64,000 nt of DNA, from the IMG/VR virus record IMGVR_UViG_3300028800_000080; one strand, given 5' to 3'. The notes beneath the pieces are model-generated. The model saw only the letters and a program-made list of their open reading frames with translations. It made no database searches and was not told where the DNA came from. A program made the position numbers and the translations under genes. This document shows, piece after piece, positions 13,006 through 38,957 of the stretch; position 1 is the stretch's first letter; every line of letters starts with the position of its first letter. This DNA is from an uncultured virus (IMG/VR IMGVR_UViG_3300028800_000080). Its lineage: Duplodnaviria; Heunggongvirae; Uroviricota; Caudoviricetes.

Positions 13006-13257
13006 TCACGCCCATATCTCCACGACGGGGGTAGTGGTGATGCGTCTGAAACTGATGCTCTCTCCGTCCTCCGATGTCTCATAGGGCGGGCACCACAACT
13101 CGACAGACTCGCCCACGTTGATGCCGGTACGCATAAAGCAGTACTTGCCTGACGAGGAGCGCAGGTTGCAGCCGTCTAAGCCGTTCTGACGCTCCCAGGT
13201 CTTGTTGACGAGGTCCAGGGCGTAGACCGCCCCAGACCTAGTTCTGAACTTGATCAT
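13006..13257 (-). CDS. Hypothetical protein
   Basis: FRTRSGAVY..TTPVVEI; coupled to the upstream ORF. Confidence 0.55.
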   Translation of the reverse strand: MIKFRTRSGAVYALDLVNKTWERQNGLDGCNLRSSSGKYCFMRTGINVGESVELWCPPYETSEDGESISFRRITTTPVVEIWA

Positions 13258-13715
13258 TAGTAGCGGGTCACCTTGGCGGACGTAACCGTGGCTACAAGCT
13301 TGAGGGCTTGGGGGTCTAGACGGGTGTAACGTACGCGACTAGGGTCAAGTTGGAGAATCAGCACGTCGCACGTCGCTGACTGGCCTATGACGCTCTCTGC
13401 CAACTGGATAGCGTGGTTAAGCGACTCACACTCCGTCGTAGTGGACGAGGTAATGGGGCCGCCCATACTACGGACTAACTCTGACGGCTCTTTGCGGTTA
13501 TGGTAGACGAACACGTACAGCTGCTTGTCCGTGGGCGTGGGCGTGAACGCCTTATTCTCGATTGTGCCGATCAGCTTGCCCTCCTCGTACACCCAGCGCT
13601 TGGAGAAGCGGGTAGCCAGCGCGTCCTCGTAGAACGCGATGACCTCTTTGAGGGTGTCCGCCTGGTGGCACCCGTTCTCCCAGATAGGCTCTTTACCGCA
13701 GTAGACTTTAATCAT
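13257..13715 (-). CDS. Hypothetical protein
   Basis: AAGGAG RBS upstream on the minus strand. Confidence 0.6.
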   Translation of the reverse strand: MIKVYCGKEPIWENGCHQADTLKEVIAFYEDALATRFSKRWVYEEGKLIGTIENKAFTPTPTDKQLYVFVYHNRKEPSELVRSMGGPITSSTTTECESLNHAIQLAESVIGQSATCDVLILQLDPSRVRYTRLDPQALKLVATVTSAKVTRY

Positions 13716-13907
13716 GTTGATTTATCTCCTTGTAAGCTTGTTGAGTGGTTTGTAGATCAAGTACTTGTTGCGGACCCTGCGCATTAGGGGCGCTGGGTTC
13801 CCTTCAGCCAACTTGCCCAGGGCGCGTCCCCATGCAGCCCAGCGGGCTATTCGGTAGAGCCAAGATACCATTCGAGCATCCTCTGTGCATCGCAGGACTC
13901 AACCAGC

Positions 13908-14246
13908 TCATCCGCCAAACGCTGGTCCATCGTCATCAGGCTCTCCAACAGGAGGCGGGCGTGGGACGAGTGGGGGTAGTCCCGAGTCAACTCGCGGGCT
14001 GAGCGCAGGCAAGGCTGGAGGCTGTTCAAACTCCCAATCAGCAATGTGCGCTTCCGTAGCAGTCGGGTAAGAGCGGACTGGAAGAATTGTTTTACGTTGT
14101 CCATGTTTCCTGTAGTAGCAATCAATGTGATGTAGACGATACTCATTGTCCCTTACCTTCTCTACCAGGTACCAACAGCCACGGAGTATCGTAGTGTGAC
14201 AGTCGGTACATATGCGGCTATACCGCGCTCGCTTGGTTATCTGCAT
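13908..14246 (-). CDS. Hypothetical Zn-binding protein (alternative frame 13847..14146 possible)
   Basis: CTDC..HIDC pattern, starting from MQITK. Confidence 0.4.
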   Translation of the reverse strand: MQITKRARYSRICTDCHTTILRGCWYLVEKVRDNEYRLHHIDCYYRKHGQRKTILPVRSYPTATEAHIADWEFEQPPALPALSPRVDSGLPPLVPRPPPVGEPDDDGPAFGG

Positions 14247-14892
14247 ACTTGAGCGACTTGATGATTGAGCGCACAGTTGCTGGGTACCATTTCTGACCCC
14301 GGCAGGCTCTAGGGTAGCGCTCATTCAACAGGGCTGCAACAACAGCGTTGCTGTAGCCCGCTTCATGCCAGTCTTTGAGGTCCAGAATGGCTAACTGCTC
14401 ACCTTCGTCAGGTACGATAACGTCACCCACTCGCTGGTAGCCGTAGGGGATAGACCCGTACACATTGTTATTCTTGCGCTTGTAAGCTAGGGCATTCGTG
14501 GTGCGCTCCACCGTGACCTCGCGCTCCCATTGCGCTACCGTAGCCAGGATGTTGACCACGAGCCGTCCAGAGGCGGACTGCGTGTCCAGCGACTCTGATA
14601 CGGACACTATCTGATAGCCCTTCTCCAACATCAGACCTAGGTCCCGCACCGACCGAGTAAGACGGTCCAGCTTGAAGACCATAACAGTGTCTCCGGGGTT
14701 GAGAAGGGCAAGCATCTCGGTCATCCGTGGCCGGTCAAGGTTGCGTCCGCTGGCGTCCCGGTCGATGAACGTGCCGGTTATCTTGCGGTCGGTAGCCTCA
14801 GCGTAGGCGTTCACCCGGCGTATCTGGTCCTCCACGGACACGGACTTGTCGTGGTCCCGGCTGATGCGAGCGTAGGCGAAGGTGAGGGCCAT
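14218..14892 (-). CDS. Serine recombinase (resolvase/invertase family with short C-terminal recombinase segment)
   Basis: YARIS catalytic Ser, DRDASG..RP, KLDRLTRS and PYGY. Confidence 0.9.
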   Translation of the reverse strand: MALTFAYARISRDHDKSVSVEDQIRRVNAYAEATDRKITGTFIDRDASGRNLDRPRMTEMLALLNPGDTVMVFKLDRLTRSVRDLGLMLEKGYQIVSVSESLDTQSASGRLVVNILATVAQWEREVTVERTTNALAYKRKNNNVYGSIPYGYQRVGDVIVPDEGEQLAILDLKDWHEAGYSNAVVAALLNERYPRACRGQKWYPATVRSIIKSLKYADNQASAV

Positions 14893-21132: not shown

Positions 21133-22602
21133 TTAGTCTGCATCCTCCTGGCCCTTCGGGGGGCTGGTGACGAAGGTTAGGTGCTCGGTTGCCCGGGTGA
21201 TGGCCACGTAGTTGAGGTTCGTCTCCTGGACGTACTCCCAGTCGCGCTGGTTCTTCCAGGTGAGGGGGAGCAGCTCAGGCTTCAGGATGAACACGCGGGG
21301 GTTCTCCAGACCCTTGGCGCGGTGGACGGTGCTGAGGAGGACTGAGGCGCGTCCGTCGCTGAACAGCGACTCAATCTCAGAGCAGAAGCCAGCTACGCTG
21401 TCGGTGGCGAAAGCGTGCCAGCAAGCCAGGATACCGGCCACCTTGTCTTGGTGGGCTTGGAGAGCTGACTCGTTGTGCTTGCGGCGAAGGATTTTAGTGG
21501 TCTCGGCATCAGCCCACATTCCCAGTGCGTTCTCATCGAACACGCCAGAGTTCATCTTGGCTGCTTTCTTGACGATGCCCGTCAGGTTGGCTGCGATGTC
21601 GCGTCCACGCACACGGGCGGGAATCTTGTTGCGAATCATCTTGATGCAAGCGCTGATGAGTGGTGCAGTGGTGCGGCACAGAATCATGTCGCCTTCACCC
21701 GCCTGCTCGAACAGCTGGGCGTAGGGGATGTTGTCCACGGTGCCCTCGGGGCAGTTGGGCCGGTCCTGAATGTCCGGCACGATTTGGCGAGCCAGGTCCA
21801 ACACGGAGGAGGGGCAGCGGTAGCAGATGGACAGAGGCAGCTCCGTGGCGTCCAGCGTGGTCTTGATGTTGTTGAACGACTCACAGTCAGCGCCAGCAAA
21901 CCCGTAGATGCTCTGGTTGGGGTCGCCCACGAACAGCATCCGACCACCCTTGGCCTGGGCCTTCAGCACGATGCCCAGCTGGGCTGCGCTGAGGTCCTGC
22001 GCTTCATCGCAGAGGACGAAGGAGTAGGACGAAGCGAGTGAGTAGTTCTCCACAGCCGGTATCCACAGCATGTCCGTGTAGTCGATGGTGCCCTGGGCCG
22101 CGAACATGCGACCATTCTGCAGTGCTAGCGGAAGGTTCGCTAGCATCGACGGCTGCACGTCCTCAATGCCGTAGTGCTCGATGACCAGGTTAACTGCCTC
22201 TTGGTTGCTCACATCCGTCAGGGTGCAGCGGACGAGGTCAATCAGCTTCACAAAGGTGTTCTGGGCTGCACGGTCCTCAGAGTAGAAGGTCTGAGCAATG
22301 TCCCGGTACTTGTGCTCCTGGACGTTCACACGCTTGGGGCGGATTGCCTTAGCGATGGCGCCGTAGCCGAGGCCATGGACCGTCTTGACGGTGGCCTTCG
22401 TGCCGACCTTGCGCTGAAGCTCATCAGCGATGTGCTTGTTGAACGCTACGAGGATGACATCACCGAAGATGAACTGGAGCAGCCAGATGAGGGTGCTGGT
22501 CTTGCCGCTACCTGCTTTGGCGTTGAGGACTGCGTGACCGCGGCCATTCTTGACCCACGCTGCGACTGCTTCCTGGAGCTGACTCGGTACAAACATTTTC
22601 AT
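21133..22602 (-). CDS. UvrD/Rep-like SF1 helicase
   Basis: AKAGSGKT, DEAQD, GDPNQSIYGFAGA, STVHRAKGLE and YVAITRA. Confidence 0.92.
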   Translation of the reverse strand: MKMFVPSQLQEAVAAWVKNGRGHAVLNAKAGSGKTSTLIWLLQFIFGDVILVAFNKHIADELQRKVGTKATVKTVHGLGYGAIAKAIRPKRVNVQEHKYRDIAQTFYSEDRAAQNTFVKLIDLVRCTLTDVSNQEAVNLVIEHYGIEDVQPSMLANLPLALQNGRMFAAQGTIDYTDMLWIPAVENYSLASSYSFVLCDEAQDLSAAQLGIVLKAQAKGGRMLFVGDPNQSIYGFAGADCESFNNIKTTLDATELPLSICYRCPSSVLDLARQIVPDIQDRPNCPEGTVDNIPYAQLFEQAGEGDMILCRTTAPLISACIKMIRNKIPARVRGRDIAANLTGIVKKAAKMNSGVFDENALGMWADAETTKILRRKHNESALQAHQDKVAGILACWHAFATDSVAGFCSEIESLFSDGRASVLLSTVHRAKGLENPRVFILKPELLPLTWKNQRDWEYVQETNLNYVAITRATEHLTFVTSPPKGQEDAD

Positions 22603-22650
22603 TCCTTCCGTGTGGTGGGGTCGCTCTTTATCGGCTGACCCTCTGGGTCA

Positions 22651-22682
22651 ATTATAAGCGCAAATCTGAGGAAAACAATAGG
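22651..22682 (-). promoter_or_regulatory. Promoter CCTA-TTGTTT-N16-TATAAT for the helicase arm
   Basis: Variant of the repeated family. Confidence 0.7.
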
Positions 22683-22786
22683 TGCGTGAAAGAATCTTGC
22701 GCTACGACAGATTCCCACACGAAATCGAACGTACGTTCTGTGCGGTGGAATTTGGTTCACCAAGCGCTGTGGGAATGTAGGGGGGG

Positions 22787-22815
22787 TTGTTTTCCGTCAC
22801 CGCATCGGCTATGAT
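22787..22815 (+). promoter_or_regulatory. Promoter TTGTTT-N17-TATGAT
   Basis: Divergent partner of the 22651 promoter, with a similar ATCGGC-TAT context. Confidence 0.55.
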
Positions 22816-23366
22816 TGTCGGTAACTCTCACGCTTGAAAGGAGTTGGATTCTGATGGTTGCTAAGATGTTACTGGTCGCCTGGTGCGTCGTTGTTGGGTT
22901 GGCTATCTACACGGTGGACGTACGAGTGATGGCGCGCATTCATGCGCAAGACCGCTGGCTCAACCCGAACGCACAGGGTGACGACTCTGCGTGTACGCTG
23001 GCGCGGACTTGTTGAAGCTTCTGTGCCAGGCTTGTGGGCAGACCTGTGCGCACTTTTGTGGTGTGTGCGGCTGCTCTGTCCACAGTGCTAGCAGTTGCTC
23101 CGAGAAACGTAAGCAGTCAAGTGGGCGAGATGCGCACTATTTGGTGTGTGCATCGTGCGTGGTTGCTGGGCACTGAGCCTGGGCTACTCAGCTAAAGGTG
23201 AGTGCTCAAGGCCCGCCTGTCACAAGAAACGAGTGCCGGATGGTAGGAAGAAATGCGCCTACCATCTACGTTTGGACGTAGAGTACCGACGTTTGCAACG
23301 TGAAGGCGGATTGTGCTCGCATTGCTACGATAGACGTGGACCAGGCGAGCATCGCTCGTGGTGTCG

Positions 23367-23457
23367 CACCAGAACCAGTCACCAGAACCAGTCACCAGAA
23401 CCAGTCACCAGAACCAGTCACCAGAACCAGTCACCAGAACCAGTCACCAGAACCAGC
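23367..23457 (+). repeat. Tandem array, 7 x 13 bp CACCAGAACCAGT (last copy ends in C)
   Basis: Read directly; no spacers. Confidence 0.95.
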
Positions 23458-23667
23458 CCCTAAATCACACTAACAAGCGTCCGCCCGAGGGGTCGCTTGG
23501 TTGACGAGGGCGTGGGTGGGCGACCGCTCGCTCTCGAAAGGACGAAGTGGGTGGGCGGTCGCCTCGTTTTTCGGTCGGCGGCTCGGAGAGGCGCGAAGCG
23601 CTCCGCGAACCGGAACCCCCCGATTCTCTCGCGAATCGGCTCGGAAGGGAAGCGGGAGTTTCTCCTT

Positions 23668-23871
23668 TCGAACGGACGTTCGAGCGTGGCGGACGAAGCG
23701 TTTTTCGGTCGTGTGGGAAATGCCCTTCTTTTGACCGGAAACGGCCCTTCCTTCGCTTCCGGTCCGACCTCCCACCCTCTCTCCCAAAATCGTTTTTTCG
23801 ACCGATTCCCACACGAAAGCGAACGGACGTTCGCGTTTCCGCGCTTGGTGAATCTCGCGAACGGACGTTCG
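23668..23871. promoter_or_regulatory. Three CGAAC-GGAC-GTTCG palindromes (23669-82, 23820-33, 23858-71), LexA/SOS-box-like
   Basis: Identical copies matching GAAC-N4-GTTC; a fourth variant lies at 22726-22739. Confidence 0.6.
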
Positions 23872-23915
23872 CTGGAAAAGAATTCGAAAAGGAGGAAAAA
23901 AACCTCTCTCTCCTC

Positions 23916-23944
23916 TCGACTTTTCGGCTCGGAAAGCGGATAAT
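23916..23944 (+). promoter_or_regulatory. Island promoter TCGACT-N17-GATAAT with upstream A-tracts
   Basis: Exact 17-bp spacer; the -10 holds one of very few TA steps in the island; 46 bp upstream of the first ATG. Confidence 0.7.
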
Positions 23945-23990
23945 CGGAGAAGGACCGGAATCCTTCCGGCCCCTCTCGAAAGGACTCGAA

Positions 23991-24314
23991 ATGACTGACG
24001 AAATGACCGTCGAAACGGCCCTCGCGAACCTTCGTTCCGCCTCGCGAAACTTCGCGCTCGACTCCGAAAACCTCGAACGATTTGAAGAGGTCGCTTTCCG
24101 TCGCCTCCTCTCCTCGCTCGGAAAAGACGTTTGGAACGAGGAGCGCGGAGCGAAAGCGAAGCGAAACGTCGCGATTCTCGTTCTTCGCGAGGCGATTCGC
24201 TCGCTCGAATCCGCCGTCGCCCTCGAAACGGTGACGGAAAACTTCTCTCTGGACGGGTCGCTCCTCCGTAATTTCGGACTCGTCCCCCCCTCTTTCGGGG
24301 AGGACTCGAAATGA
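23991..24314 (+). CDS. Island gene A, 107-aa hypothetical (no H/Q/Y)
   Basis: GAAAGGACTCGAA-ATG RBS; TGA stop overlaps the next ATG. Confidence 0.8.
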   Translation: MTDEMTVETALANLRSASRNFALDSENLERFEEVAFRRLLSSLGKDVWNEERGAKAKRNVAILVLREAIRSLESAVALETVTENFSLDGSLLRNFGLVPPSFGEDSK

Positions 24315-25048
24315 CTCTCGGAAACCCGGTTCTCGACTCCGTTTTCTCGCGCTCGGCGGGTCGCGAAACTTTCTCCTCCGTTTTCGCCCGCGAATTTGGC
24401 TCCCCGGTCGGACTCGACTCGGACGGACCGGACCTCGCTCGGACGTTCGCTCGGGCCTCTCGCGCTTTCCTCGAAGCTTTCCCGGACGTTGACCTCTTGG
24501 AATTCTCGATGGAAACCGGAATTTCGCTCGACCCCGACGCTTGGTTCGAGTCCTCCGCGACTCGCGAAACCCCGTTCGGAATTTCGACCGGCTCCTTCGT
24601 TTGCCCCGCGAATCCGTGCGGGGCCGGTCCCCGCTCCGACCGCTGGGACGAAGCGGAATTCCGGGAGTCGGTCGAAAATGACCTCGCCTTCCTCCTCCTC
24701 GCTCTCGCGGAGAAGAGAAAATCCGCTCGACTCGACGGCGCTTCGAAATCGCGCTTCGAAATGATGAAGGAAATCGAAGCGAATTTCGAGGCGGGAAAAA
24801 AGCGAGTGGATGACCTCTTCTTCGCTTCGCTCCTCGCGACCCGCGAAGCGCTCGCTTCGGCTCTCTCGGACCTCCCCGGACCGTCCGACCCCTCGCTCGC
24901 TCTCCCCCCGTTCTCGACGGTCGAAAAACTTCTCCGCTCGGTCGAAAACGTCGTGGACGCGGTGGACCTCCCGGAAATCGCTCGGACGCGCCTCTCGCTC
25001 CTCCGCTCGCTCGTTCTTGACCTTTCGGCCCGGGGGAAGCTTTCGTGA
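24311..25048 (+). CDS. Island gene B, 245-aa hypothetical (no H/Q/Y)
   Basis: GGAGGACTCGAA-ATG; ATGA coupling; globular-looking composition. Confidence 0.8.
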   Translation: MTLGNPVLDSVFSRSAGRETFSSVFAREFGSPVGLDSDGPDLARTFARASRAFLEAFPDVDLLEFSMETGISLDPDAWFESSATRETPFGISTGSFVCPANPCGAGPRSDRWDEAEFRESVENDLAFLLLALAEKRKSARLDGASKSRFEMMKEIEANFEAGKKRVDDLFFASLLATREALASALSDLPGPSDPSLALPPFSTVEKLLRSVENVVDAVDLPEIARTRLSLLRSLVLDLSARGKLS

Positions 25049-25191
25049 CCGCCTCCGACCTCGCTCGCTCGTTCGAGGAGCGCTCCGCGCTCCTCCCCCC
25101 CGTCCTTCTCGCCTTCCGTGCCCGGGGCGTCCGTCGCTCGAAAGCGACCCGTCGCCTCTCCTCCCTTCTCTCTCGAAAGGACTCGAAATGA
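25045..25191 (+). CDS. Island gene C, 48-aa basic peptide (no H/Q/Y)
   Basis: GTGA/ATGA coupling at both ends; MTASDLARSFEERSALLPPVLLAFRARGVRRSKATRRLSSLLSRKDSK. Confidence 0.55.
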   Translation: MTASDLARSFEERSALLPPVLLAFRARGVRRSKATRRLSSLLSRKDSK

Positions 25192-25847
25192 CTCTCTCCG
25201 ACGCTCTCGCGAACCTCCGTTCCTTCGCCTTCGAGGCGGCTCGCCTCTCGGACGCCCCCGCCCCCGTTCTCGCTTCGGTCGAAGGCGAGGGGTCGCTCGC
25301 GGAACGGGTCGCTCGCTTCCTCTTCGTCGCGAATTCGGACGAAGGCCCGGAACCGTTCGCCTTCTCGTGTGGCGGCGATGGCGGGTGGGGCTCGTTCTTC
25401 TCGGCGGTCGGCGTCGTTTCGGGGCTGACCCCGGACGGCGAGGACCCCGCTTCGGCGGGCGACGAACCGCCCTTCGCTCCCCTCGTCTTTCTCGACGGCT
25501 CGGCGCTCGCTCCGACCTCCGAGGAAGCGGACGGAACGCTGGTTGTCCTTCGCGGACCGGCTTCGACTCTCGCGGAGCGAGCGATTCTCGCTCGGGAAAT
25601 GGGCTCCGAGGAGGATTTCTTCGACCGAGTGGGCTGTTTCTCGGCTCCCGGTTTCGAGGAGAACGACGAGCGAGCGCTCCCGACCCTTTTCGAGGACGGC
25701 TCCGTTCTCGCGGACCTCGGAGAAATGTGTGGGCGAGAGGGCGCTTGGTTGACTCTCTCGGCTTGGTTCCTCGGAGAGGAGGCGACCTTCGCGGAAGCGA
25801 CGGACGACCGGGGGACCTCCCTTCTCTCTCGAAAGGACTCGAAATGA
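25188..25847 (+). CDS. Island gene D, 219-aa acidic hypothetical (no H/Q/Y)
   Basis: GAAAGGACTCGAA-ATG; N-terminal ALANLRS shared with gene A. Confidence 0.8.
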   Translation: MTLSDALANLRSFAFEAARLSDAPAPVLASVEGEGSLAERVARFLFVANSDEGPEPFAFSCGGDGGWGSFFSAVGVVSGLTPDGEDPASAGDEPPFAPLVFLDGSALAPTSEEADGTLVVLRGPASTLAERAILAREMGSEEDFFDRVGCFSAPGFEENDERALPTLFEDGSVLADLGEMCGREGAWLTLSAWFLGEEATFAEATDDRGTSLLSRKDSK

Positions 25848-26788
25848 CTGATTCGACTTTCCGCGCTCGAATCGAGGGCTCTCTCGCTCTCGCCTTCGCG
25901 AAGGCGAACCCGAATGACCGTCGCGAACGTCGCGAATTCCCGGACGGCTCCGCGCTCTCGCCTCGCGGAATTCGAGGCGAAGCTTTCTCCGTTTGGATGA
26001 ACGGCTGGTTGGACTTCGGCTCGGTGACCGAGGAGGAAATCCTCGGCTCGGAGGCGGCTCTCGCCGTCCTCTCGGGCTCTCTCGGGCTCTCGGACGGACT
26101 CCGCTCGACCTCGTTCCCGGACGGCTCCTCCGCTCGACGGAACGATGACGGCTCGGCGCTCGTTTGGCTGCCTGGCCTCCTCGGGGGGAAGCGCTTCGAC
26201 GCGGCTTTCGCTCCGCTTCCGACCCCTCGCTTGACCCCTCGAAGCGAGTGGGCGACCGCTTCCGACCTCCCCGAGTGGGAGAGAGAGCTTCGACGGAGCG
26301 CTCGGAACCGGGCGGCTCTTTTGACGGCGGCTCGGGCTCGCTTCGAACGTCTCCCGAATGGCGACGTTCGCGCTTCGGTCCCGGGAGAGTCGCGGACTTT
26401 CTCCTGGGAAAAAGAGGATTTTGTCGGACGCGGCTCTCGCTCGGGAACCGGACCCGCGCTCTCGGCGGTTCTCGATTCGGTCGCCTTCGCTTGGTCGCGT
26501 GGCGCGTGGGGAATCGGGCTCGTGGTTGGCGACGGACCGGGAGTCGCGCTCGAAACGTCCGCCTCGATTCCCGGTCGCTCGGATTGGTTGAACCTCTCGA
26601 TTGCTCGCTCGGCGAACGGAACCTGGTCGCTTGTCGGAGAGCGCGAGGCGGCGGAACGCTTCGGCGTCTGGACGGACGATGGCTTCCTTCCCGCCGACCC
26701 GTCGCTCGTTCTCTCGGTCGCGGACGCGGAGAGGCGCGACGAAATCGAAGCGGAGAATGGGAGGCGGATTCGCGAAGCGCTCGGCTGA
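25844..26788 (+). CDS. Island gene E, 314-aa hypothetical (no H/Q/Y)
   Basis: GAAAGGACTCGAA-ATG; Trp-rich; internal FPDGS repeats. Confidence 0.8.
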   Translation: MTDSTFRARIEGSLALAFAKANPNDRRERREFPDGSALSPRGIRGEAFSVWMNGWLDFGSVTEEEILGSEAALAVLSGSLGLSDGLRSTSFPDGSSARRNDDGSALVWLPGLLGGKRFDAAFAPLPTPRLTPRSEWATASDLPEWERELRRSARNRAALLTAARARFERLPNGDVRASVPGESRTFSWEKEDFVGRGSRSGTGPALSAVLDSVAFAWSRGAWGIGLVVGDGPGVALETSASIPGRSDWLNLSIARSANGTWSLVGEREAAERFGVWTDDGFLPADPSLVLSVADAERRDEIEAENGRRIREALG

Positions 26789-26807
26789 CTTGGTTGGGGG
26801 GTCCGGG

Positions 26808-26845
26808 AGAGGGGTCGCGCTTCGGTGCGGCTCCTCTTTTCTTTT
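26808..26845 (+). terminator. Intrinsic terminator of the island operon
   Basis: AGAGGGGTCGCGC-TTCG-GTGCGGCTCCTCT followed by TTTCTTTT. Confidence 0.85.
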
Positions 26846-26952
26846 GACCGTCGGAGCGCCTCCGGGCGCTTCGCGCGTCGTTGATGGGGGAAAGAGTCGG
26901 GGGCGGCTCCGAACGCGCTGAGAAGAGGCTCGGAGGCCCGGGAAATGGTAGC

Positions 26953-27330
26953 GAGGGGAAAGTTGAGGGGGAAAGTTTCCCCGCTCGGAAAGGACTCGGG
27001 TGTTCTTTCTTCGCTCGGTCGTGTGGGAACGGGGTCGCGAAAAGAGAACCGAGGTCGCTTCCGGGGAGAACGGGGAGAACGGGGAGTGATTCTCGGGCTC
27101 GGGCTCGCTCTCTTAGAGAGGAGAGAAGCTTTTTTCGGAAAACCGCTTGGTTGGTAACGAAAGAAGCGAGCGAGAGGGGTCGCGAGGCGAGAGGAACCCG
27201 AGAATAACTCCCCGTTCTCCCCGTTCTCCCCGGAAGCGACCCTGGTCTCTTTCTTCGTGTGGGAGGGTGAGGAGAAAGGACCGTCCGGTTCTTTCCGAAG
27301 CGGGGAAAGTTTCCCCTTGACTTTCCCCTC
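26953..27330. repeat. Large imperfect inverted repeat (~380 bp)
   Basis: Outer arms from 26953 and to 27330; inner arms 27041-27097 and 27197-27252 contain tandem GGGGAGAAC / GTTCTCCCC units. Confidence 0.9.
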
Positions 27331-27702
27331 CCCCGTGGGAGAGAGCGAGCGAGTGGGCTGGTTGCCCGGCTGATGGGGTGGGTGGGTGAATAGAGAAGGG
27401 GCCGGTTGGTAGTGGGTGGTAGGTCCCCACCGTGTGAACATGCTATAGTCACTACGCGTAGTTTCGCCTGCGGCATCAACCCAGCAACTGCGCACACACG
27501 CCCAAGGCACGTTTCAGCTGCGCGCCGAAGCTAATAGAGGAGACAATGGACGACGACGCGCAGTTCTGGTTTGAGGCGCATCACTTCAGGGATATGCCCT
27601 TCAGGGCTATTCCTGAAGAACATAAACAAGCAGTTATTGAACTGCTTGTGGATTTGTTCCTACGCGGGAGTGGTTTACTCGTTAACGGGGAATAATTAGA
27701 AT

Positions 27703-28107
27703 ATGGATACTTTAATGGATTACAAGGTTGAGCTTAAGGTCGCTTTTCGTGCGGCCACGGACGGTGACGCACAGAAGATGTGCTCGCGCATGCAGCATGC
27801 AGCTACCACGTTGAGCGGCATCAATTACGATTTGGCGGTGAATGAGAGCAAACTCATCAACCTCTCCCCCGTGGACCCGAAGTATAAGACGGTAGACGAG
27901 GAGGACATGGACGGTCGAATGGTGCGCGTCACCCGCGACGAGGCAGGCCGAGTTATGCGCGTCACGGACGAGGCGGGCGACATTGTGTTCAGTCCGCGCC
28001 TGGTCGCGCAGCGGCCTGGGGTCAGCGGCACGCCCGGTGAGACCCCGAAGCCGAACCTGCCGTCAACCGCAGCTCCTATGCCGACCAAGGCTGACCCGAG
28101 GTCGTAA
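27703..28107 (+). CDS. Hypothetical protein
   Basis: 134-aa ORF with an internal RV(T/M)RDEAG repeat. Confidence 0.6.
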   Translation: MDTLMDYKVELKVAFRAATDGDAQKMCSRMQHAATTLSGINYDLAVNESKLINLSPVDPKYKTVDEEDMDGRMVRVTRDEAGRVMRVTDEAGDIVFSPRLVAQRPGVSGTPGETPKPNLPSTAAPMPTKADPRS

Positions 28108-28246
28108 TGGAGCCTCTTTCGCTAGCATTTGTGCTATTCGTCTTTGTCACAGCCTTCGTTGCAGGCTGTGCCTGGACACTCGGGTGCTGGCTGATGTCAC
28201 GGCTACTGTTGGCGCTATTCAAGTAGCGCCAAAATAATCCCCGGCC

Positions 28247-28279
28247 CCTATTGAACTTTCCGCCCTGATCGCTTATGAT
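28247..28279 (+). promoter_or_regulatory. Conserved phage promoter CCTA-TTGAAC-N17-TATGAT
   Basis: Family member, preceded by the hairpin at 28209-28232. Confidence 0.8.
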
Positions 28280-28307
28280 TAGGGCGAAATGTTGAAAGGA
28301 GCACCCA

Positions 28308-28646
28308 ATGCTTATTACAGGCGACAAGGTCACCGTTCGTCCCGGCGTGCGCTTCGAGCACAACTCAGCCCCCGGCAAACTAGGCCACGCGGTTGAGGCG
28401 GTCATCGCCTACCGGGACGACTTAGGCGGCCCAAACTTTAACCTACCACGCTACTTCGTCTGTGTGCTCGGCATACACGACGGCAAGTTTGGCTACCGAG
28501 GCTTCATCAACGATGAGGATATACTCATCACAGAGCCGTATCAAATCTACGTGTATCGCAACGGTGAAAGCGTGTTCTACAAGACGTGCACTACCTTCAG
28601 TACGAAGGACGCATTGCAGAAGGCTACAGATGCTGCTGTTGGTTGA
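28308..28646 (+). CDS. Hypothetical protein
   Basis: AAAGGAG RBS after the promoter. Confidence 0.65.
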   Translation: MLITGDKVTVRPGVRFEHNSAPGKLGHAVEAVIAYRDDLGGPNFNLPRYFVCVLGIHDGKFGYRGFINDEDILITEPYQIYVYRNGESVFYKTCTTFSTKDALQKATDAAVG

Positions 28647-30764: not shown

Positions 30765-31007
30765 ATGGACATCCTCGTCTGGCTCAGTTGGATAGGAAAC
30801 CCCCTTGCGTTGCTTGGCTCCTATATGATAGGCGGCGGCAACCTCAAAGGCTGGTGGGCCTATCTCGCAGCGGACTTTTGCCTCATCGGGCTACCTATCC
30901 AGCACCGTCTCTGGTCGCTGGCGGTGTTGTTCACTCTGTTCATTGCGACAGGTCTACGCGGCCTCTACAAGTCAGGACAGTTGAAGTGGCCAAGCTTTAC
31001 ATCTTAA
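30765..31007 (+). CDS. Small membrane protein, PnuC-like half-transporter
   Basis: Three hydrophobic helices with W..G..LALLG.Y....N.KGW.....D and GLY. Confidence 0.5.
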   Translation: MDILVWLSWIGNPLALLGSYMIGGGNLKGWWAYLAADFCLIGLPIQHRLWSLAVLFTLFIATGLRGLYKSGQLKWPSFTS

Positions 31008-31444
31008 GAGGCGCACCCGGCTCAGGCAAGAGCACTTTTGCCCATCACCTGTTGAATGCGGGCCTAGCAGACAAGCACTTTGAAGCCGACCTGTGGTTCT
31101 ACGGTAAGAACGGCTACAAGTGGGACCCCGCATTACTGCAGGACGCCCACTACTGGTGCTTCCTCAGCACGCACGCGGCCTTGCGCGGCGGCTACAATGT
31201 TGTTGTAGCCAATTGCTTTGCGCGACGCATGCAAATACAGGATTACGTAGACCTCGGTTACGAAACTGAAGTGATTGAGCTGAGGGGCAAACACCCTAAC
31301 GTTCATGGTGTCCCGCCCCAGAAAGTCGAACACATTCGTCGTATCATGGAGGAGTGGCCCGGTGAGCAAAGCGTCAATAGAGGTAAAAGGTCAAAAGTAC
31401 ATAGTCCCGGTTATGCGGGGCCTGAGTATTCGCAAGTTAGCTAA
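30986..31444 (+). CDS. P-loop kinase (AAA_33 / polynucleotide kinase-like)
   Basis: LYILRGAPGSGKST, EADLWF, DAH.WC and NVHGVP. Confidence 0.8.
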   Translation: MAKLYILRGAPGSGKSTFAHHLLNAGLADKHFEADLWFYGKNGYKWDPALLQDAHYWCFLSTHAALRGGYNVVVANCFARRMQIQDYVDLGYETEVIELRGKHPNVHGVPPQKVEHIRRIMEEWPGEQSVNRGKRSKVHSPGYAGPEYSQVS

Positions 31445-32541: not shown

Positions 32542-32743
32542 AGATTGGCGCGGTCAAACCCTCAACGTAGGTGACAAAGTAGTCTACCCGGGACGGATGG
32601 GCTCTTCACTTTGGCTTCGTGAGGGTGTCATTGAGGAAATTCACTCAGACGCTATCGTAGTACGTCTCACCTACGTGGATAACTGGCAGGGCGGCGGTCG
32701 CCGTGTGACTATTCGCAGCCGTTGGGTGACCCGAGTTGCCTGA
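32525..32743 (+). CDS. Small SH3/KOW-like protein
   Basis: D..GQTLNVGDKVVY motif. Confidence 0.5.
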   Translation: MTSVRKDWRGQTLNVGDKVVYPGRMGSSLWLREGVIEEIHSDAIVVRLTYVDNWQGGGRRVTIRSRWVTRVA

Positions 32744-33302
32744 CTACATTCAAGTCTTTACTCGGGGCAAGTTTTGGCCGTTGGAACCGCATAGAGGCGC
32801 CATCGACTTACACGACATCGCCCACTCACTATCGCTTTTGTGCCGATACGCCGGTCACATCGACCGTTTTTATAGCGTAGCACAGCATAGCATCATGGTT
32901 TCGCTGCTAGTACCCGCTAAGGACGCGCTGTGGGGCCTGATGCACGATGCGTCGGAAGCCTACCTTTTAGATATTCCAGCCCCTCTCAAGAAGATGGACG
33001 CGCTGCGGCCCTACCGCGAGGCTGAGGCGAAGCTAATGCGGGCTATCGCGCTGACGTTCCACATGGAGTCTGAGCAGCCTGAGTCTATTCACGAGGCGGA
33101 TTTGAAGGCGCGGCGTGTAGAGGCTGAAGAGCTGATGTCCCCTCCAGTAGACAACTGGACGAGCAACTTGCCTGAGTACAGTGCGAATGACCGAATATTA
33201 TTCAAGCGCATTGCTAACATGGGTATGTACCAAGCAGAAAAGGCATTCCTAGCACGATACGAAGAAATAACCGGGTGTAAGACCCCTTCCGAATGGAGAT
33301 AG
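32736..33302 (+). CDS. HD-domain 5'-deoxynucleotidase (YfbR/YfdR-like)
   Basis: DIAHSLS.LCRY.GH..FYSVAQHS and LMHDASEAY. Confidence 0.88.
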   Translation: MPDYIQVFTRGKFWPLEPHRGAIDLHDIAHSLSLLCRYAGHIDRFYSVAQHSIMVSLLVPAKDALWGLMHDASEAYLLDIPAPLKKMDALRPYREAEAKLMRAIALTFHMESEQPESIHEADLKARRVEAEELMSPPVDNWTSNLPEYSANDRILFKRIANMGMYQAEKAFLARYEEITGCKTPSEWR

Positions 33303-35323: not shown

Positions 35324-36472
35324 TTGAGCACACTCGCGGTAAAAGTTGAGCGCATTCGTGACATTCAACCCCACGGTAACGCAGACCGGCTTGAGATTGC
35401 CACCGTATTAGGATGGCAGTGTGTCGTGCAGAAGGGTGCCTTTAAGAAGGGCGACCTTTGCGTCTATTTCCCCATCGACAGCATTCTCCCGCAGACGGTT
35501 GAGGACGCCATCTTTGGCGCAGACTCCAAAATCAAACTGGCCAAGCATCGCATCCGCGCCATCAAGCTTCGTGGGGCTATTAGCCAGGGATTGGCGACCG
35601 AGCCTAAGACGCTGATTGGGCTGGGCGCGGGCATCATCAACGCTAAAGAAGGTACGGACCTAACTGCGGTGCTAGGCGTCACCAAGTACGAGCCACCCCC
35701 GCCGCGTACGCAGGGCATGTCTAACCTGCAAAAGTCGTGGCGCAAGAAGAACCCGCACTTTCACGAGTACACGGACATCGAAAACGCCAAAAACTACCCC
35801 GACACCTTTGCGCCAGGTGAGCGTGTGCTCGTATCGGAGAAGGTCCATGGCACGAATTTCCGTGCCGGTTGGGTGCCCTACGAGCCAGATAACCTCTGGA
35901 AGAAGTTACTCACTTGGCTGCATCTCGCGCCTAAGTACGAGTTTGTCTTCGGCAGTCGCAAGGTTCAGTTACAAGACCCCGGTCGGGTAGCGGGTACTGG
36001 CTTCTACGAACGTCAAGCGAATGGCGAAGGCCCCCCACCGGGTAACGTGTACGCTGAAGCGGTGCGCAAGTACAACCTTCGCAAGATTCCGCTGGGCTAC
36101 GTTGTGTATGGTGAGATTTACGGGTCCGGCATTCAGAAGGGCTACACTTACGGGTGTAAGCAGGGCGAGCATAAGGTTGCTTTCTTCGACCTGATGATTA
36201 ATGGCCAGTACCAGGATGACTACGAGTTTCGCCGGTGGGCCACGATTGTGGGGCTACCCGTTGTACCGCAGTTGTGGTCAGGTAAGTACGAGTCGCTGGA
36301 CCAGATGAAGGCGCTTACGGTGGGCGACAGCGTGCTGTGCCACGAGCAACCCTGTATGGAAGGCGTCGTAGTGAAGCCTGAGCACGAGCGCTGGGACCCG
36401 TCCTTAGGCCGCGTCATTCTCAAGGTCGTCAGTGACCAGTATTTGCTGGGCGACCAGAGCGAATTCCACTGA
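35324..36472 (+). CDS. RNA ligase (Rnl2/DRB0094-like) with N-terminal OB-type domain
   Basis: H.NADRLE, LRGAISQG, motif I SEKVHGTN, YGEIYG, FFD and EGVVVK. Confidence 0.88.
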   Translation: MSTLAVKVERIRDIQPHGNADRLEIATVLGWQCVVQKGAFKKGDLCVYFPIDSILPQTVEDAIFGADSKIKLAKHRIRAIKLRGAISQGLATEPKTLIGLGAGIINAKEGTDLTAVLGVTKYEPPPPRTQGMSNLQKSWRKKNPHFHEYTDIENAKNYPDTFAPGERVLVSEKVHGTNFRAGWVPYEPDNLWKKLLTWLHLAPKYEFVFGSRKVQLQDPGRVAGTGFYERQANGEGPPPGNVYAEAVRKYNLRKIPLGYVVYGEIYGSGIQKGYTYGCKQGEHKVAFFDLMINGQYQDDYEFRRWATIVGLPVVPQLWSGKYESLDQMKALTVGDSVLCHEQPCMEGVVVKPEHERWDPSLGRVILKVVSDQYLLGDQSEFH

Positions 36473-36899: not shown

Positions 36900-37092
36900 G
36901 AAAGTGGCTACGGACAGTAGCATGTTCTTCAAGGCCCCGGTGGAACCGGAATTCACTCTGGTATTGCTGCTGAAAGGCGGCGGTGACGAGAGTGTCTGCG
37001 GCTTCAAGTCTAACGCAGCCGCAGAAGAGCGTTTTTACCGCGAGTATTCTAACGCACCGAATGTGGCGGGGTTCAAGGTTCTTGAAGTTTGA
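36892..37092 (+). CDS. Hypothetical protein
   Basis: GGGGAG RBS; coupled to the next gene. Confidence 0.5.
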   Translation: MAEKVATDSSMFFKAPVEPEFTLVLLLKGGGDESVCGFKSNAAAEERFYREYSNAPNVAGFKVLEV

Positions 37093-37940
37093 CCCCAGTT
37101 GAGCAGTTTGGTCGCCAGCTGATTCAGAATGGCGACCTAGACCCGGCGTACATCGTAGCATTTGACGCCGAGTTAAAGCCTGACCTGTTGCGTAAGTGGG
37201 TATTCCTCTACTCTTGGTTCATACATGCGGGAGTTACCAGCCACTTAGCAGCGCAGGACCACCCCTACGCGGCAGCGATGAGCGAGTTGAAGATACTGCC
37301 GCGCTCACCTGAGCGGCGTCACTTTAGGGCTGCTAATGCGGTGCGAACGCTAGAGTACCTCAAGACCAAGTCACCGGATGCTTGGCTCAAGTACTGGTTC
37401 GGACAAGACACGACGTACGCCCCCATCGAGAAGCGTATCCGTGAGGTGCCCGGCTTTGGCGCCTGGACGGCGACTAAAATCATCGACATGGGTGAGATGC
37501 TGCTGGGCTATTCCGTGGACCCGCCAGACCCCTATACGTGGGAGCTATACAAGACCCCCGCCGAAGGGGCTAAAATGATTGCCTCGCCAGGTGAATCCCA
37601 AGGCGATACACTGGTACGGTTGGCCTCACTCCTATCGGACCTAACCGTGCCCCCGTTGCATATCCGCCACGTGGACGTGCGCGAGGCTGAAACGGTGCTG
37701 TGCCGGTTCAAAGAATTCACGACAGGCACGTATCAACCGGGTAAGGAAATACGTACTACCGTAAATGAATTGCTGTGGCGTCCTAACTGGATTGCCAAAC
37801 GCATGCTCGAAAGGAGCAGTCTATGGTCTTTCAAATCCGAGGGAACCACGGCTCAGGTAAGTCTACGACAATTCGATGCCTCATTGACAACTACGGAGTA
37901 CGGGATGTTATCAAAGCCTCCGACCTGGTCAACGGCCTAG
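37089..37940 (+). CDS. Amino acid:DNA transferase-like (aGPT-Pplase2 family) hypermodification enzyme
   Basis: GDLDPAY, ERRHFR, HhH-like GFGAWTATKIIDM and EAETVLCRFK..G.Y.PGK. Confidence 0.75.
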   Translation: MTPVEQFGRQLIQNGDLDPAYIVAFDAELKPDLLRKWVFLYSWFIHAGVTSHLAAQDHPYAAAMSELKILPRSPERRHFRAANAVRTLEYLKTKSPDAWLKYWFGQDTTYAPIEKRIREVPGFGAWTATKIIDMGEMLLGYSVDPPDPYTWELYKTPAEGAKMIASPGESQGDTLVRLASLLSDLTVPPLHIRHVDVREAETVLCRFKEFTTGTYQPGKEIRTTVNELLWRPNWIAKRMLERSSLWSFKSEGTTAQVSLRQFDASLTTTEYGMLSKPPTWSTA

Positions 37941-38474: not shown

Positions 38475-38957
38475 ATGGACCTGGACCCTAAAATTGACCT
38501 CGTACGACGGCTCTACATTCAACAGGGCCGGTCGCTGTCTGACTTGGCCATATCGTATGATATCGCCATGTTTGTTCTAAAGTCACATTGTAAGACTGAG
38601 AAATGGGATGAACAGCGTGAAGCGCATCAGCAGAAGGCCGCGAGCACAGACCCCAACAACAGTCTATCTCGTCACGAGTCCATTGTCAACGGCTATATGC
38701 TTAAGCTTGAGGAGTTGTGGGAGAAAAACCTAGACCCCACTCTCAGCGAAGGCGAGCTGCGTCGGCTCCGGGTGGTCGTGGAGAATGCGAACAAAATCAC
38801 GGAGTCTATGATGAGCACGATTGAGTATGACCGCAAGATTCACGGTGTGAAGAACACTGCTCCGTCCGTTCAGCAAGACGTGGGAGAAGAGCACGGCGTG
38901 GCTTACCAGGTCAAGCTCAAGGAGTCAGTTGAAGGGGCGGCAGCGCAAAGCAACTAG
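38475..38957 (+). CDS. Terminase small subunit (putative)
   Basis: N-terminal HTH-like segment ending ..EKWDEQR; immediately upstream of terL. Confidence 0.6.
   Translation: MDLDPKIDLVRRLYIQQGRSLSDLAISYDIAMFVLKSHCKTEKWDEQREAHQQKAASTDPNNSLSRHESIVNGYMLKLEELWEKNLDPTLSEGELRRLRVVVENANKITESMMSTIEYDRKIHGVKNTAPSVQQDVGEEHGVAYQVKLKESVEGAAAQSN

Follow-up and report, generated by a model that had tools for sequence, protein, structure and literature searches.

A nested imperfect palindrome of 378 bp forms the right end of a 3.9-kb gene module that shuns the dinucleotides CA and TA on one strand of an uncultured phage genome. The palindrome is real, it is the only element of its kind in the 64,000-nucleotide stretch of DNA analysed here (the window), and its probable role is that of a control site at which proteins dock or a hairpin forms. 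With regard to its surroundings, we consider it quite possible, if short of probable, that it is the cis element with which a naturally recoded module ends, the module having been purged to evade a strand-specific activity. With regard to the element itself, our tentative reading is a DNA-level protein assembly or boundary site. Its parts are as follows.

26953-27330: whole nested imperfect inverted repeat (378 bp), centre at 27141/27142
26953-27010: left outer arm, containing GGGGAAAGTT twice
26968-26982: 15-bp dyad GGGGAAAGTTTCCCC in the left outer arm
26988: GAAAGGACTCG in the left outer arm, a degenerate match to the core of the gene-start box
27019-27029, + strand: left copy of the box TCGTGTGGGAA, in a poorly paired segment between outer and inner arms
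27048-27100: left inner arm, with the 9-bp tandem CGGGGAGAA (2.8 copies) at 27062-27086
27101-27193: centre, with small sub-hairpins, TA at 27114 and 27155 and a T6 run
27194-27246: right inner arm, with the complementary tandem CTCCCCGTT (2.8 copies) at 27208-27232
27255-27265, + strand: right copy of the box, TCGTGTGGGAG, mirror of the left copy in direct orientation
27273-27330: right outer arm, containing the dyad GGGGAAAGTTTCCCC at 27302-27316
27319-27328: inverted GGGGAAAGTC in the right outer arm

An earlier note on this DNA had described an imperfect palindrome of about 380 bp with iterated 9-mers in its inner arms, and both descriptions hold. A repeat search returned inner arms of 53 nt (92% complementary, separated by 93 nt) and outer arms of 58 nt (72% complementary), and these two pairs are the only inverted repeats of at least 20 nt within 600 bp in the whole window. 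The 9-bp tandems of both inner arms were detected by TRF. Folding of 26940-27345 gave structures far better than those of shuffled sequences on either strand, with 0 of 100 shuffles as good in any of the four calculations: −254.3 kcal/mol (z −11.8) for the + strand and −229.9 kcal/mol (z −14.2) for the − strand as RNA, and −135.9 and −125.9 kcal/mol, respectively, as DNA. RNA folding favours the + strand by 24 kcal/mol, with 158 pairs (12 G:U) vs 143 (4 G:U) on the − strand. The G+C content of the palindrome is 59%. A small open reading frame with a GGAGG Shine-Dalgarno sequence (26945-27157) overlaps it.

The surrounding module is more remarkable than the palindrome. Its genes and signals, and those next to it, are the following.

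22712-22722 and 23806-23816, both − strand: further copies of the box, each with the dyad GAACGNNCGTTCG directly before it
23367-23456: perfect 13-bp tandem array CACCAGAACCAGT (6.9 copies), adjoining the left border of the island
23475-27390, + strand: CA/TA-poor module (3.9 kb), with the palindrome as its right end
23705-23719, + strand: TCGGTCGTGTGGGAA box of the left control region
23916-23944, + strand: sigma-70-like promoter TCGACT-17-GATAAT, which spends one of the island's rare TA
23991-24314, + strand: gene A, translationally coupled
24311-25048, + strand: gene B, translationally coupled
25045-25191, + strand: gene B', translationally coupled
25188-25847, + strand: gene C, translationally coupled
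25844-26788, + strand: gene D, translationally coupled
26805-26846, + strand: strong intrinsic terminator of the island operon
27441-27449, + strand: extended -10-like sequence TGcTATAGT, preceding the next + strand ORF (ATG 27546)

On the + strand, CA is absent from 23813 to 27427 (3616 bp), and TA occurs in the module only at 23941, 24269, 26949, 27114, 27155 and 27205; ordinary CA/TA content is back from 27391. The module is also partly depleted of TG and AT. Its A content is lowered by about 9 points, the largest rise is in C, not in G, and CTC and TCG are enriched fourfold in the island. These shifts led us to reject hypermutation as the origin of the island, which is also countered by unraised Cys and by intact frames, coupling and boxes. 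In the strict zone, 2 of 20 variant sites make CA or TA vs 3.4 expected, both in the dispensable gene B and each in one low-depth contig; none of the 13 differences in the independent JGI contig L059 does so. A full-text search of the literature returned no report of operon-wide, strand-specific CA avoidance combined with near-absolute avoidance of TA.

The coding sequences bear the same mark. A gene-start box, (CTCTCGAA)AGGACTCGAAATGACT, opens four of the five genes. CAN and TAY codons are absent from all five, and the sole stop codon is TGA. Proteins A, B, C and D, whose composition was tabulated, contain no His, Gln or Tyr. In contrast, a distant homologue of gene D has 9 Tyr and 1 Gln, a sequence that appears to show the family without the CA/TA rule. 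Neither the island proteins nor most of their neighbours matched a PHROG or Pfam family, and AlphaFold models were unusable (mean pLDDT 36 for gene D and 35 for gene C). Behind gene D, the terminator combines a 13-bp core stem (3 G:U) and a wobble-pair extension with a UUCG loop and the tail UUUUCUUUU; the region 26800-26852 folds with −30.3 kcal/mol. The palindrome follows 100 nt downstream, within a 700-bp untranslated gap, and the promoter of the operon that comes next is about 110 bp further on. A promoter scan of both strands from 22400 to 28200 returned sites at 23916 and 27674 only, with no -35/-10 pair in the palindrome arms. No tRNA genes were found.

CA avoidance runs straight through the palindrome, which belongs to the CA-free island, as had been proposed. 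It contains no CA (18 expected), 12 TG and three TA (16 expected), the third of which, at 27205, lies in the right inner arm; all three gather near the apex. In the + strand fold not one of these 12 TG has both of its bases in Watson-Crick pairs, as the exclusion of CA dictates; they form T:G wobbles, bulges or loops. The CA rule overrides the symmetry of the palindrome. The earlier note had gone further in suggesting that several mismatches fall exactly where perfect symmetry would need CA. This holds insofar as the + strand has no CA and no fully paired TG, but only two of the approximately 34 mismatched positions in a global alignment of the arms (26965/27319 and 27088/27206) are irreparable on either side without creating CA or TA.

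The arms are built mostly of iterated motifs. Ten of the window's 22 GGGGARA sites are inside the palindrome, in mirror order and five per arm, one pair in each arm forming the 15-bp dyad and the remainder the 9-bp tandem run; shuffles of the 378 bp contained 0.14 sites on average, and none of 2000 reached ten. Likewise, GGGGAAAGTT with at most one mismatch occurs at 12 sites vs 3.25 expected, six of them in the palindrome. The dyad GGGGAAAGTTTCCCC is unable to fold on itself since its loop would be a single base, and is thus plausible as a dyad in duplex DNA. The two TCGTGTGGGA boxes (27019-27028 and 27255-27264) are both on the + strand and exact mirrors about 27141.5, which bears out the observation that they are mirror-placed yet direct in orientation. 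They fall in unpaired segments and are identical, not complementary, as expected of a duplex site required on both arms whose inverted form, with its two CA, is forbidden. In 64 kb, the 11-mer TCGTGTGGGAA has four exact copies and one with a single mismatch. They occur in either orientation and are confined to the interval 22712-27265, although five matches at one mismatch also arose in 3 of 100 shuffles. Its sites are the divergent intergenic region at 22712, the left control region of the island and the palindrome, and an exact 15-mer is common to 23705-23719 and the region of the left box in the palindrome (27015).

Mirrored motifs, a box that recurs only at neighbouring control regions, a terminator behind and an extended -10-like sequence ahead together argue for the assembly or boundary site that we tentatively favour. 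The palindrome would present short recognition motifs, arranged with two-fold symmetry, in duplex DNA, with 15-bp dyads of the type bound by dimers. We infer that one or more sequence-specific proteins, whatever their identity, assemble on it, and that the complex marks the right-hand boundary and control region of a CA/TA-free module of early type. Proteins on the two arms might bridge them, thereby insulating transcription of the module from that of the genes downstream or switching between the two. The large hairpin potential would then be a by-product of symmetry, which the + strand could still use when single-stranded.

In support of this reading, no substitution was seen in the palindrome in contig L059 or in Logan contigs from four other sequencing runs; the sole difference is a T run at the apex that is longer by one in two of the sequencing runs (T7 instead of T6). 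As flanking phage DNA varies at about 2 per kb, the absence of substitutions matches the background and is no proof of special constraint. The island genes vary fastest, with 19 variant sites in 2798 bp. Further points weigh against the assembly site. Our scans revealed no DNA-binding regulator, the low-complexity composition of the island inflates short repeats, and avoidance of CA on one strand only, which a purely duplex function leaves unexplained, suggests a single-strand process such as transcription. The larger number of pairs and of G:U on the + strand would also fit a + sense RNA.

Relatives that could tell conservation of motifs from conservation of pairing were not found. The virus is a thymidine-hypermodifying myovirus with a contractile tail and only distant kinship to anything cultured; in protein searches, relatives of the neighbouring UvrD-like helicase and 5-hmdU kinase reached at most 39% and 30% identity, respectively. 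Megablast of 22500-28500 against cultured phages, scans of viral contigs with gene D, P0002 and two DNA patterns, and a genome-contig scan with alignment A3 gave no match, and the Atlas gave no usable one. The nearest virus record (G001) overlaps the window only from 35432 onward. Fifty-seven loci with the 15-bp dyad and locus L001 contained no long CA- or TA-free run, their longest dinucleotide-free runs (up to 512 bp) being of CG and GC.

The recoded module, which we hold quite possible, would be a self-contained unit of control region, five coupled genes, terminator and palindrome. The purge, paid for with the loss of His, Gln and Tyr from its proteins, might hide one strand, or its transcript, from a strand-specific activity. 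One candidate is a YpA-cutting ribonuclease of host or phage. The other is a thymine-hypermodification (or modified-T-directed) activity reading T plus purine, in which case the template strand of the first-expressed genes would be without target. The palindrome would serve as a protein-bound or hairpin-forming end-stop that obeys the rule against its own symmetry.

By itself, the palindrome adds another example to the large, repeat-built cis elements that occur at origins and at the boundaries of early regions in phages. It matters through the rule, by which an entire operon and its flanks avoid CA absolutely, and TA almost absolutely, on one strand. This rule is strong enough to distort the symmetry of a palindrome and to deprive real proteins of three amino acids. 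If the rule reflects nuclease escape or the context of thymidine hypermodification, the module is a natural experiment revealing the specificity of that activity. The palindrome could then be a handle to the protein or process that reads the module boundary, and the module could guide the design of expression cassettes that are nuclease-proof or free of modification.

Among the alternatives, a hairpin in a + sense RNA, reached by read-through or a local start and acting as a cap at the 3′ end against exonucleases, a double-strand processing site or an insulator, is possible but on the unlikely side. According to the folding model a structured RNA, one of the proposals of the earlier note, is energetically plausible, and it would protect a module transcript that is itself unusually nuclease-proof (YpA-free). 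The stronger + strand fold, the clustering of TA near the apex and the gene-sense avoidance of CA up to 27390, which rightward transcription of the entire zone would predict, agree with it. The G:U excess on the + strand, however, arises because CA is forbidden while TG is tolerated. A canonical strong terminator already stands 100 nt upstream, the 3′ flank of the palindrome is CCCCCGTGGG, without the U tract of a Rho-independent terminator, and a terminator scan found only weak terminator-like sub-hairpins inside it. In addition, the conserved boxes are unpaired and also occur inverted at 23806 and 22712. The sole match in Rfam 15 was to a eukaryotic lncRNA model, at 22.7 bits (gathering threshold 60; E 0.16).

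We regard a replication origin as unlikely. Mirror arrays might load two opposed hexamers of the D5/SF3-type primase-helicase encoded at 10506-12776, a Zn-ribbon/TOPRIM primase fused to D5_N and DUF5906, the last of which is taken to be the SF3 helicase part. SF3-helicase origins such as those of SV40, papillomavirus and AAV are palindromes in which motifs of 4-6 bp are iterated, and the iterons recognised by P4 alpha are octamers. The iterated repeats in mirror order are candidate initiator-binding sites, and the palindrome is unique of its kind in 64 kb. Yet it has no AT-rich unwinding stretch, and with an imperfect centre of 93 bp it is poorly suited to extrude a cruciform from duplex DNA. 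GC skew, put forward earlier as a check on a candidate origin, was computed, and the cumulative curve does not turn at 27 kb. The window contains no consensus DnaA box (TTWTNCACA, 2.7 expected), to whose reverse complement the TCGTGTGGGAA box bears only a partial resemblance. With neither an AT-rich stretch nor a skew turn nor a DnaA box, a classical melting origin is left unsupported. The primase-helicase gene is 14 kb away, and the palindrome shares the composition of a module that resembles an accessory unit, inserted and evolving fast. A packaging structure, another early suggestion, is unlikely too, since the large terminase gene and the ORF directly before it (38475-38957, no family match) lie 11 kb away.

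Rather doubtful is a functionless relic, that is, an inverted gene-start duplication or a selfish insertion of MITE type, from which the constraint on the island would later have removed CA. The degenerate gene-start box in the left arm, the divergence of the arms and a 24-nt direct repeat of 75% identity (26779 and 27364) flanking the terminator and palindrome would fit. However, neutral decay would hardly yield mirrored boxes in direct orientation, since this takes a joint change of six central bases, and the palindrome is free of substitutions in all samples examined. The marks of a MITE (multiple copies, terminal inverted repeats and a target-site duplication) do not describe this element within the 64 kb, where it is present once. 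Of 82 genome-contig loci with the 22-nt inner-arm pattern, 80 were examined, and the matches there were unrelated repeats, mostly in Streptomyces genomes; none was related or had the pattern in both orientations, and none had a long CA- or TG-free run. An invertible switch is also unlikely, given that strand-changing joints were not observed and that the centre, with TG but no CA, apparently has one fixed orientation.

A T5-like injection-stop or pause site is improbable. The module would be the first to enter and would be expressed, and the palindrome would hold the DNA until module proteins release it. The T5 report describes a first-step-transfer region whose layout is similar (10.1101/866236): here, boxes stand at both ends of a 3.3-kb gene block with the fastest-varying genes, the 13-bp array adjoins its left border, and a homologue of the T5 pre-early dmp gene is present (32736-33302). 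That gene, however, lies 5.4 kb to the right of the module and outside it, and no A1/A2 family was found among the proteins scanned against PHROG and Pfam. A site of the T5 type would lie close to the left physical end of the genome, in a long terminal repeat, and the proposal presupposes such an end and a matching entry polarity. The phage is contractile-tailed and distant from anything cultured, and the T5 mechanism is itself unproven.

An Frpo/ssi- or sso-like element, in which a folded single strand mimics a duplex promoter or primer site, is very improbable. Bacterial DnaG primase starts at sites with TG or TA at their core (CTG, CTA, TTA), and the − strand of the island is without TG and almost without TA. 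Size (about 330-380 nt), imperfect symmetry, strand asymmetry and a position beside likely early accessory genes recall the Frpo promoters of leading regions (PMC11541004). Against this, neither arm has a -35/-10 pair on either strand, a -10 hexamer being impossible where TA is nearly absent; the palindrome is downstream, not upstream, of the island genes, and tailed-phage DNA enters as duplex.

An assembly fold-back, already judged unlikely in the earlier note, is next to inconceivable: short-read unitigs do end at the inner arms, the usual behaviour of k-mer assemblers where an inverted repeat is genuine, but contig L059 spans the entire palindrome with 100% identity over 26780-27560, Logan contigs of the four other runs cover both arms with unique flanks, and the arms, which are mismatched at many positions, flank a 93-bp centre that is unique.

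Comparison with known systems places the element among several partial likenesses. In T5, poorly conserved ORFs lie between repeat regions sharing inverted elements, followed by a large untranslated block with nested repeats, palindromes and a run of direct repeats (10.1101/866236). The element shared by both ends of a gene block of about 3 kb and the direct repeats nearby resemble this arrangement. In contrast to T5, to which our phage is unrelated, the window has no paired DnaA boxes, and no dmp, A1 or A2 family was recognised among the island proteins scanned. To our knowledge, T5 has no strand-specific dinucleotide avoidance. SF3-initiator origins, including the AAV Rep-binding element and the P4 ori iterons, share mirrored iterated motifs with the palindrome and an SF3-type primase-helicase with this genome; they differ from it in their AT-rich melting element and skew signal, and helicase binding here is hypothetical. 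Intrinsic terminators and T7-type RNase III hairpins are likewise G+C-rich hairpins ending an early transcription unit, but the palindrome is 5-10 times longer, has repeated motifs and no U tract, and follows a separate canonical terminator. With Frpo/ssi elements it has in common an imperfect palindrome of a few hundred nucleotides, strand specificity and fast-evolving early accessory genes, whereas the Frpo stem carries -35/-10 elements upstream of its genes on a strand that enters single-stranded (PMC11541004); here, neither element is present and genes A-D lie upstream. For the module rather than the palindrome, the closest comparison is with MazF. Engineered ACA-less mRNAs escape MazF and remain translatable, and 9 of the 15 MazF/ChpBK-group toxins in Table 1 of the same source recognise UA- or CA-containing sites (PMC5408214), none of which the + strand of the island contains. 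Other MazF sites, e.g. UCGCU, are abundant in the island, and the partial depletion of TG and AT is unpredicted by an RNase reading. Unlike that of ACA-less mRNAs, the avoidance in this module is natural, acts at the level of dinucleotides and extends into non-coding flanks, past the terminator.

The element is a nested imperfect inverted repeat of about 380 bp (26953-27330, centre 27141/27142), as described in the earlier note. A repeat search resolved inner arms of 53 nt each at 27048-27100 and 27194-27246, 92% complementary and separated by 93 nt, and outer arms of 58 nt each at 26953-27010 and 27273-27330, 72% complementary; a scan of all 64 kb returned no other inverted repeat of at least 20 nt within 600 bp. 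The iterated 9-mers noticed in the inner arms are a 9-bp tandem of 2.8 copies (CGGGGAGAA, 27062-27086) and its complement in the right inner arm (27208-27232). Global alignment of the left half with the reverse complement of the right half gave 134 Watson-Crick, 9 G:T and 2 A:C pairs and 42 gap columns. Both strands of the stretch 26940-27345 were folded. RNA folding yielded -254.3 kcal/mol for the + strand (z -11.8) and -229.9 kcal/mol for the - strand (z -14.2), DNA folding -135.9 and -125.9 kcal/mol, respectively, and none of the 100 dinucleotide-preserving shuffles per case was as good.

Such a structure might have been an assembly fold-back, which the earlier note considered unlikely. The stretch is present in 22 rhizosphere metagenome runs; half or more of the sampled words occur in 12 of these. 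In four of the 22 runs, Logan contigs cover both arms together with unique flanks and end at the inner arms, the behaviour expected of k-mer assemblers at true inverted repeats. Moreover, the JGI metagenome contig L059 spans the entire element with 100% identity to the window over 26780-27560 and differs at 10 positions in 1.7 kb of genes left of it. An assembly artefact is therefore extremely improbable. The sole variation inside the element in four runs was the lengthening, in two of them, of the apical T run by one T after 27129. Substitutions were lacking from 26927-27969, which equals the flanking background, as ordinary phage DNA on both sides has about 2 variant sites per kb; thus, the element is neither hypervariable nor demonstrably under special conservation.

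Consistent with its proposed position at the right end of a CA-free island, the palindrome contains no CA and ends 60 bp before the right edge of a 3.9-kb zone (23475-27390) in whose + strand A almost never follows a pyrimidine. CA is absent from this strand over 3616 bp (23812 to 27428), and TA occurs in the zone only at 23941, 24269, 26949, 27114, 27155 and 27205; CA/TA content is normal again from 27391. In the island genes, CA was found 0 times versus 137 expected and TA once versus 83 expected. TG and AT are also depleted, TC, GA, AA and CG are enriched, and G+C is 61-67% versus about 55% elsewhere. As a result of the avoidance, ORFs of about 1345 codons cross the whole island in two of the three - strand frames. 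The module is organized as follows.

23916-23944, +: sigma-70-like promoter TCGACT-17-GATAAT, using one of the rare TA
23991-24314, +: gene A
24311-25048, +: gene B
25045-25191, +: gene B'
25188-25847, +: gene C
25844-26788, +: gene D
26805-26846, +: canonical intrinsic terminator directly after the gene D stop (13-bp core stem, UUCG loop, tail UUUUCUUUU)
27441-27449, +: extended -10-like TGcTATAGT ahead of the next ORF (start 27546)

The island consists of real + strand genes, five translationally coupled frames with ATGA/GTGA overlaps. Four of the five open with the same gene-start box, AGGACTCGAAATGACT, and all use TGA as the only stop, which is absent in frame along each gene and occurs many times in the other two frames. 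The codon table of the five frames holds no CAN and no TAY, and His, Gln and Tyr are missing from the four proteins tabulated (A, B, C and D); Leu codons comprise 85 CTC and 4 CTG. Neither Pfam nor PHROGs matched any of the four larger gene products. With gene D as query, exhaustive HMMER searching retrieved a copy almost identical to it and a single distant homologue, P0002 (36% identity over 212 residues, library-wide E 1.5e-12). P0002 has nine Tyr and one Gln; D is thus a member of a real family and was recoded here. A natural clean deletion of gene B (24308-25038), carried by both JGI contigs (L059 and L060) and by two of the Logan runs, keeps the coupling to the next frame and retains the avoidance, as 0 of 13 L059 differences create CA or TA. 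Of the strict zone's 20 variant sites, two give rise to CA/TA where 3.4 would be expected, both in the dispensable gene B and in one low-depth contig each. The island genes carry 19 variant sites in 2798 bp, about threefold denser than the flanks (four runs), and coding changes are mostly non-synonymous (14/17).

The terminator stretch (26800-26852) folds at -30.3 kcal/mol, and the palindrome starts about 100 bp past the terminator. With this terminator upstream and the next ORF at 27546, the element is untranslated DNA between two transcription units, and it follows the dinucleotide rule despite this position. The left arm is traversed by a 70-codon ORF (26945-27157), preceded at 8 nt by a GGAGG Shine-Dalgarno sequence; two of the rare TA of the flank are used in its second codon (GTA) and its stop (TAA), and it could have arisen by chance from the symmetry. 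At the other end, a perfect 13-bp tandem array (CACCAGAACCAGT, 6.9 copies, 23367-23456) in the 3' end of ORF 23146-23463 abuts the island. Each unit contains three CA, adjoining the CA-free zone. Successive 13-bp units shift the frame, so that the repeat is translated in all three frames and looks like a DNA-level array. The only three exact window copies of GTGGGTGGG (23512-23520, 23547-23555 and 27378-27386, all +) bracket the island, the right-hand one within a G-run cluster with quadruplex potential.

A perfect palindrome requires equal numbers of CA and TG on one strand. The + strand of the palindrome holds 12 TG and 0 CA (18 expected), and TA is reduced to 3 versus 16 expected. When the + strand is folded, no TG has both bases in Watson-Crick pairs; all 12 form T:G wobbles, bulges or loop residues. 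Thus, CA exclusion accounts for much of the arm divergence and, with TG present, for the difference between the + strand (158 pairs, 12 G:U) and the - strand (143 pairs, 4 G:U). The claim that mismatches coincide exactly with positions at which symmetry requires CA held at two places only and failed for most of the ~34 mismatched positions; at 26965/27319, and at 27088/27206, where the right arm reads TAAC, not TCAC, restoring the pairing from either side would introduce CA or TA.

The arms are built from iterated motifs. Of the 22 GGGGARA sites on both strands of the window, the palindrome contains ten, arranged in mirror order with five on each arm; palindrome shuffles contained 0.14 on average, and 0 of 2000 reached 10. 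In each arm, two GGGGARA sites together form a 15-bp dyad, GGGGAAAGTTTCCCC (26968 and 27302), which is unable to fold on itself. An 11-mer box, TCGTGTGGGAA, has four exact copies and one with a single mismatch in the window, all within 22712-27265, although with one mismatch permitted five matches also arose in 3 of 100 shuffles, and the low-complexity composition of the island inflates short repeats. Box copies and operator-like dyads are located as follows.

22712, -: box
23709, +: box
23806, -: box
27019, +: box, left arm
27255, +: box, right arm
23669-23682, 23820-23833 and 23858-23871: operator-like dyad CGAACGGACGTTCG, left control region of the island

An exact 15-mer is common to 23705 and 27015. 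The dyad GAACGNNCGTTCG directly precedes the boxes at 22712 and 23806, and the left control region contains three copies of it. The palindrome boxes are indeed mirrored yet direct, at 27019-27028 and 27255-27264 about 27141.5 in the same orientation; both sit in unpaired segments of the arms, and inverting the box would introduce two CA. The box at 22712 is adjoined by GAACGTACGTTCG, related to CGAACGGACGTTCG. It lies in a divergent intergenic region of which a contig from one metagenome run, X9, omits 134 bp (22703-22838).

The window derives from a contractile-tailed phage (sheath, baseplate J, T4-type large terminase), for which no close relative was found among cultured phages. Also encoded are a Zn-ribbon/TOPRIM primase fused to a D5-type helicase, a family A polymerase, and two proteins that could act together in RNA repair, an RNA ligase (35324-36472) and an AAA_33 kinase-like protein (30788-31444). 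On the - strand, 13257-14892 holds a 224-residue serine recombinase with a resolvase domain and the start of a recombinase domain, followed by short same-strand ORFs; this may represent a large serine recombinase that was split or truncated. Thymidines in the virion DNA are probably modified, as a thymidine-hypermodification set is encoded.

2372-3316: thymidylate-synthase homologue
9417-10388: 5-hmdU DNA kinase
37089-37940: amino acid:DNA transferase

The cause of the CA/TA rule bears on the palindrome too. A mutational origin is unlikely, as A is down by about 9 points, C shows the largest rise, fourfold enrichment is seen for CTC and TCG, and Cys shows no increase. The best fits are two selective readings. 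At the RNA level, UA and CA would be avoided as recognition sequence of a MazF-type RNase. In support of this, Table 1 of PMC5408214 lists 15 MazF/ChpBK-group toxins, nine of which have UA or CA inside their recognition sites; according to the same source, messages lacking ACA remain translatable under MazF. An RNase predicts neither the 2.3-fold TG depletion nor the AT depletion, nor avoidance upstream of the promoter and past the terminator. At the DNA level, the rule would be tied to the sequence context of thymidine hypermodification, for which this phage appears equipped by gene content. T stands in a pyrimidine context on both strands of the module: T followed by a purine is absent from the - strand, and the + strand keeps only TG, at 0.43-0.61 of expectation. 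Passages on related systems describe 5-hmdU conversion as sequence-specific (PMC5889632) and restriction-resistant sites as enriched for T then G or C, credited to the kinase (PMC6449724); template and non-template base modifications can differ in their effects on T7 RNA polymerase transcription in vitro, according to part of PMC11550810. No report of such a dinucleotide-avoiding island was found in a limited full-text collection. Bacterial DnaG primase starts at CTG, CTA and TTA, so that the - strand of the module might be a primase desert, an idea from which no coherent role for the palindrome was derived.

We tentatively favour a DNA-level role, in which sequence-specific protein(s) would assemble on the two-fold-symmetric site in duplex DNA and the complex would mark where the module gives way to the following operon and control this boundary. 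This is suggested by arms made of iterated sites including local duplex dyads, by a box common in both orientations to two other nearby control regions, by boxes retained at mirror positions though unable to pair, and by the location between a strong upstream terminator and a downstream promoter. Against it, no regulator was identified among the scanned island proteins and neighbours, no relatives were found for covariation comparison, and one-strand CA avoidance through the element points to a single-strand process. The latter would suit a + sense RNA hairpin, a somewhat less probable but still plausible alternative that explains strand bias and huge stability; it is at odds with the strong terminator upstream, the missing U tract, box copies elsewhere in opposite orientation and the lack of an Rfam match. 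That the palindrome is an origin for the SF3-type primase-helicase appears rather unlikely. Its mirror arrays resemble, by analogy, those of the SV40, papillomavirus, AAV and P4 origins, but there is no AT-rich element (59% G+C), no DnaA box in the window and no GC-skew inflection at the element. A functionless relic or selfish insert is less likely again.

A T5-like injection stop is slightly less probable still. The layout corresponds to that described for the T5 iss region in part of 10.1101/866236, and a homologue of the T5 pre-early deoxyribonucleotidase (dmp) is present at 32736-33302; in contrast to T5, no A1/A2 family was found among the proteins scanned, and the window has no consensus DnaA box. 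A Frpo/sso-like single-strand element is very improbable, since the promoter -35/-10 pair of Frpo, as presented in sections of PMC11541004, is absent from the palindrome. The interest of the palindrome lies in its being the end piece of a module under a strand-specific dinucleotide rule, of which we found no prior description. Repeat-built cis elements are already known from phage early-region boundaries and origins, and the palindrome is a variant of these.
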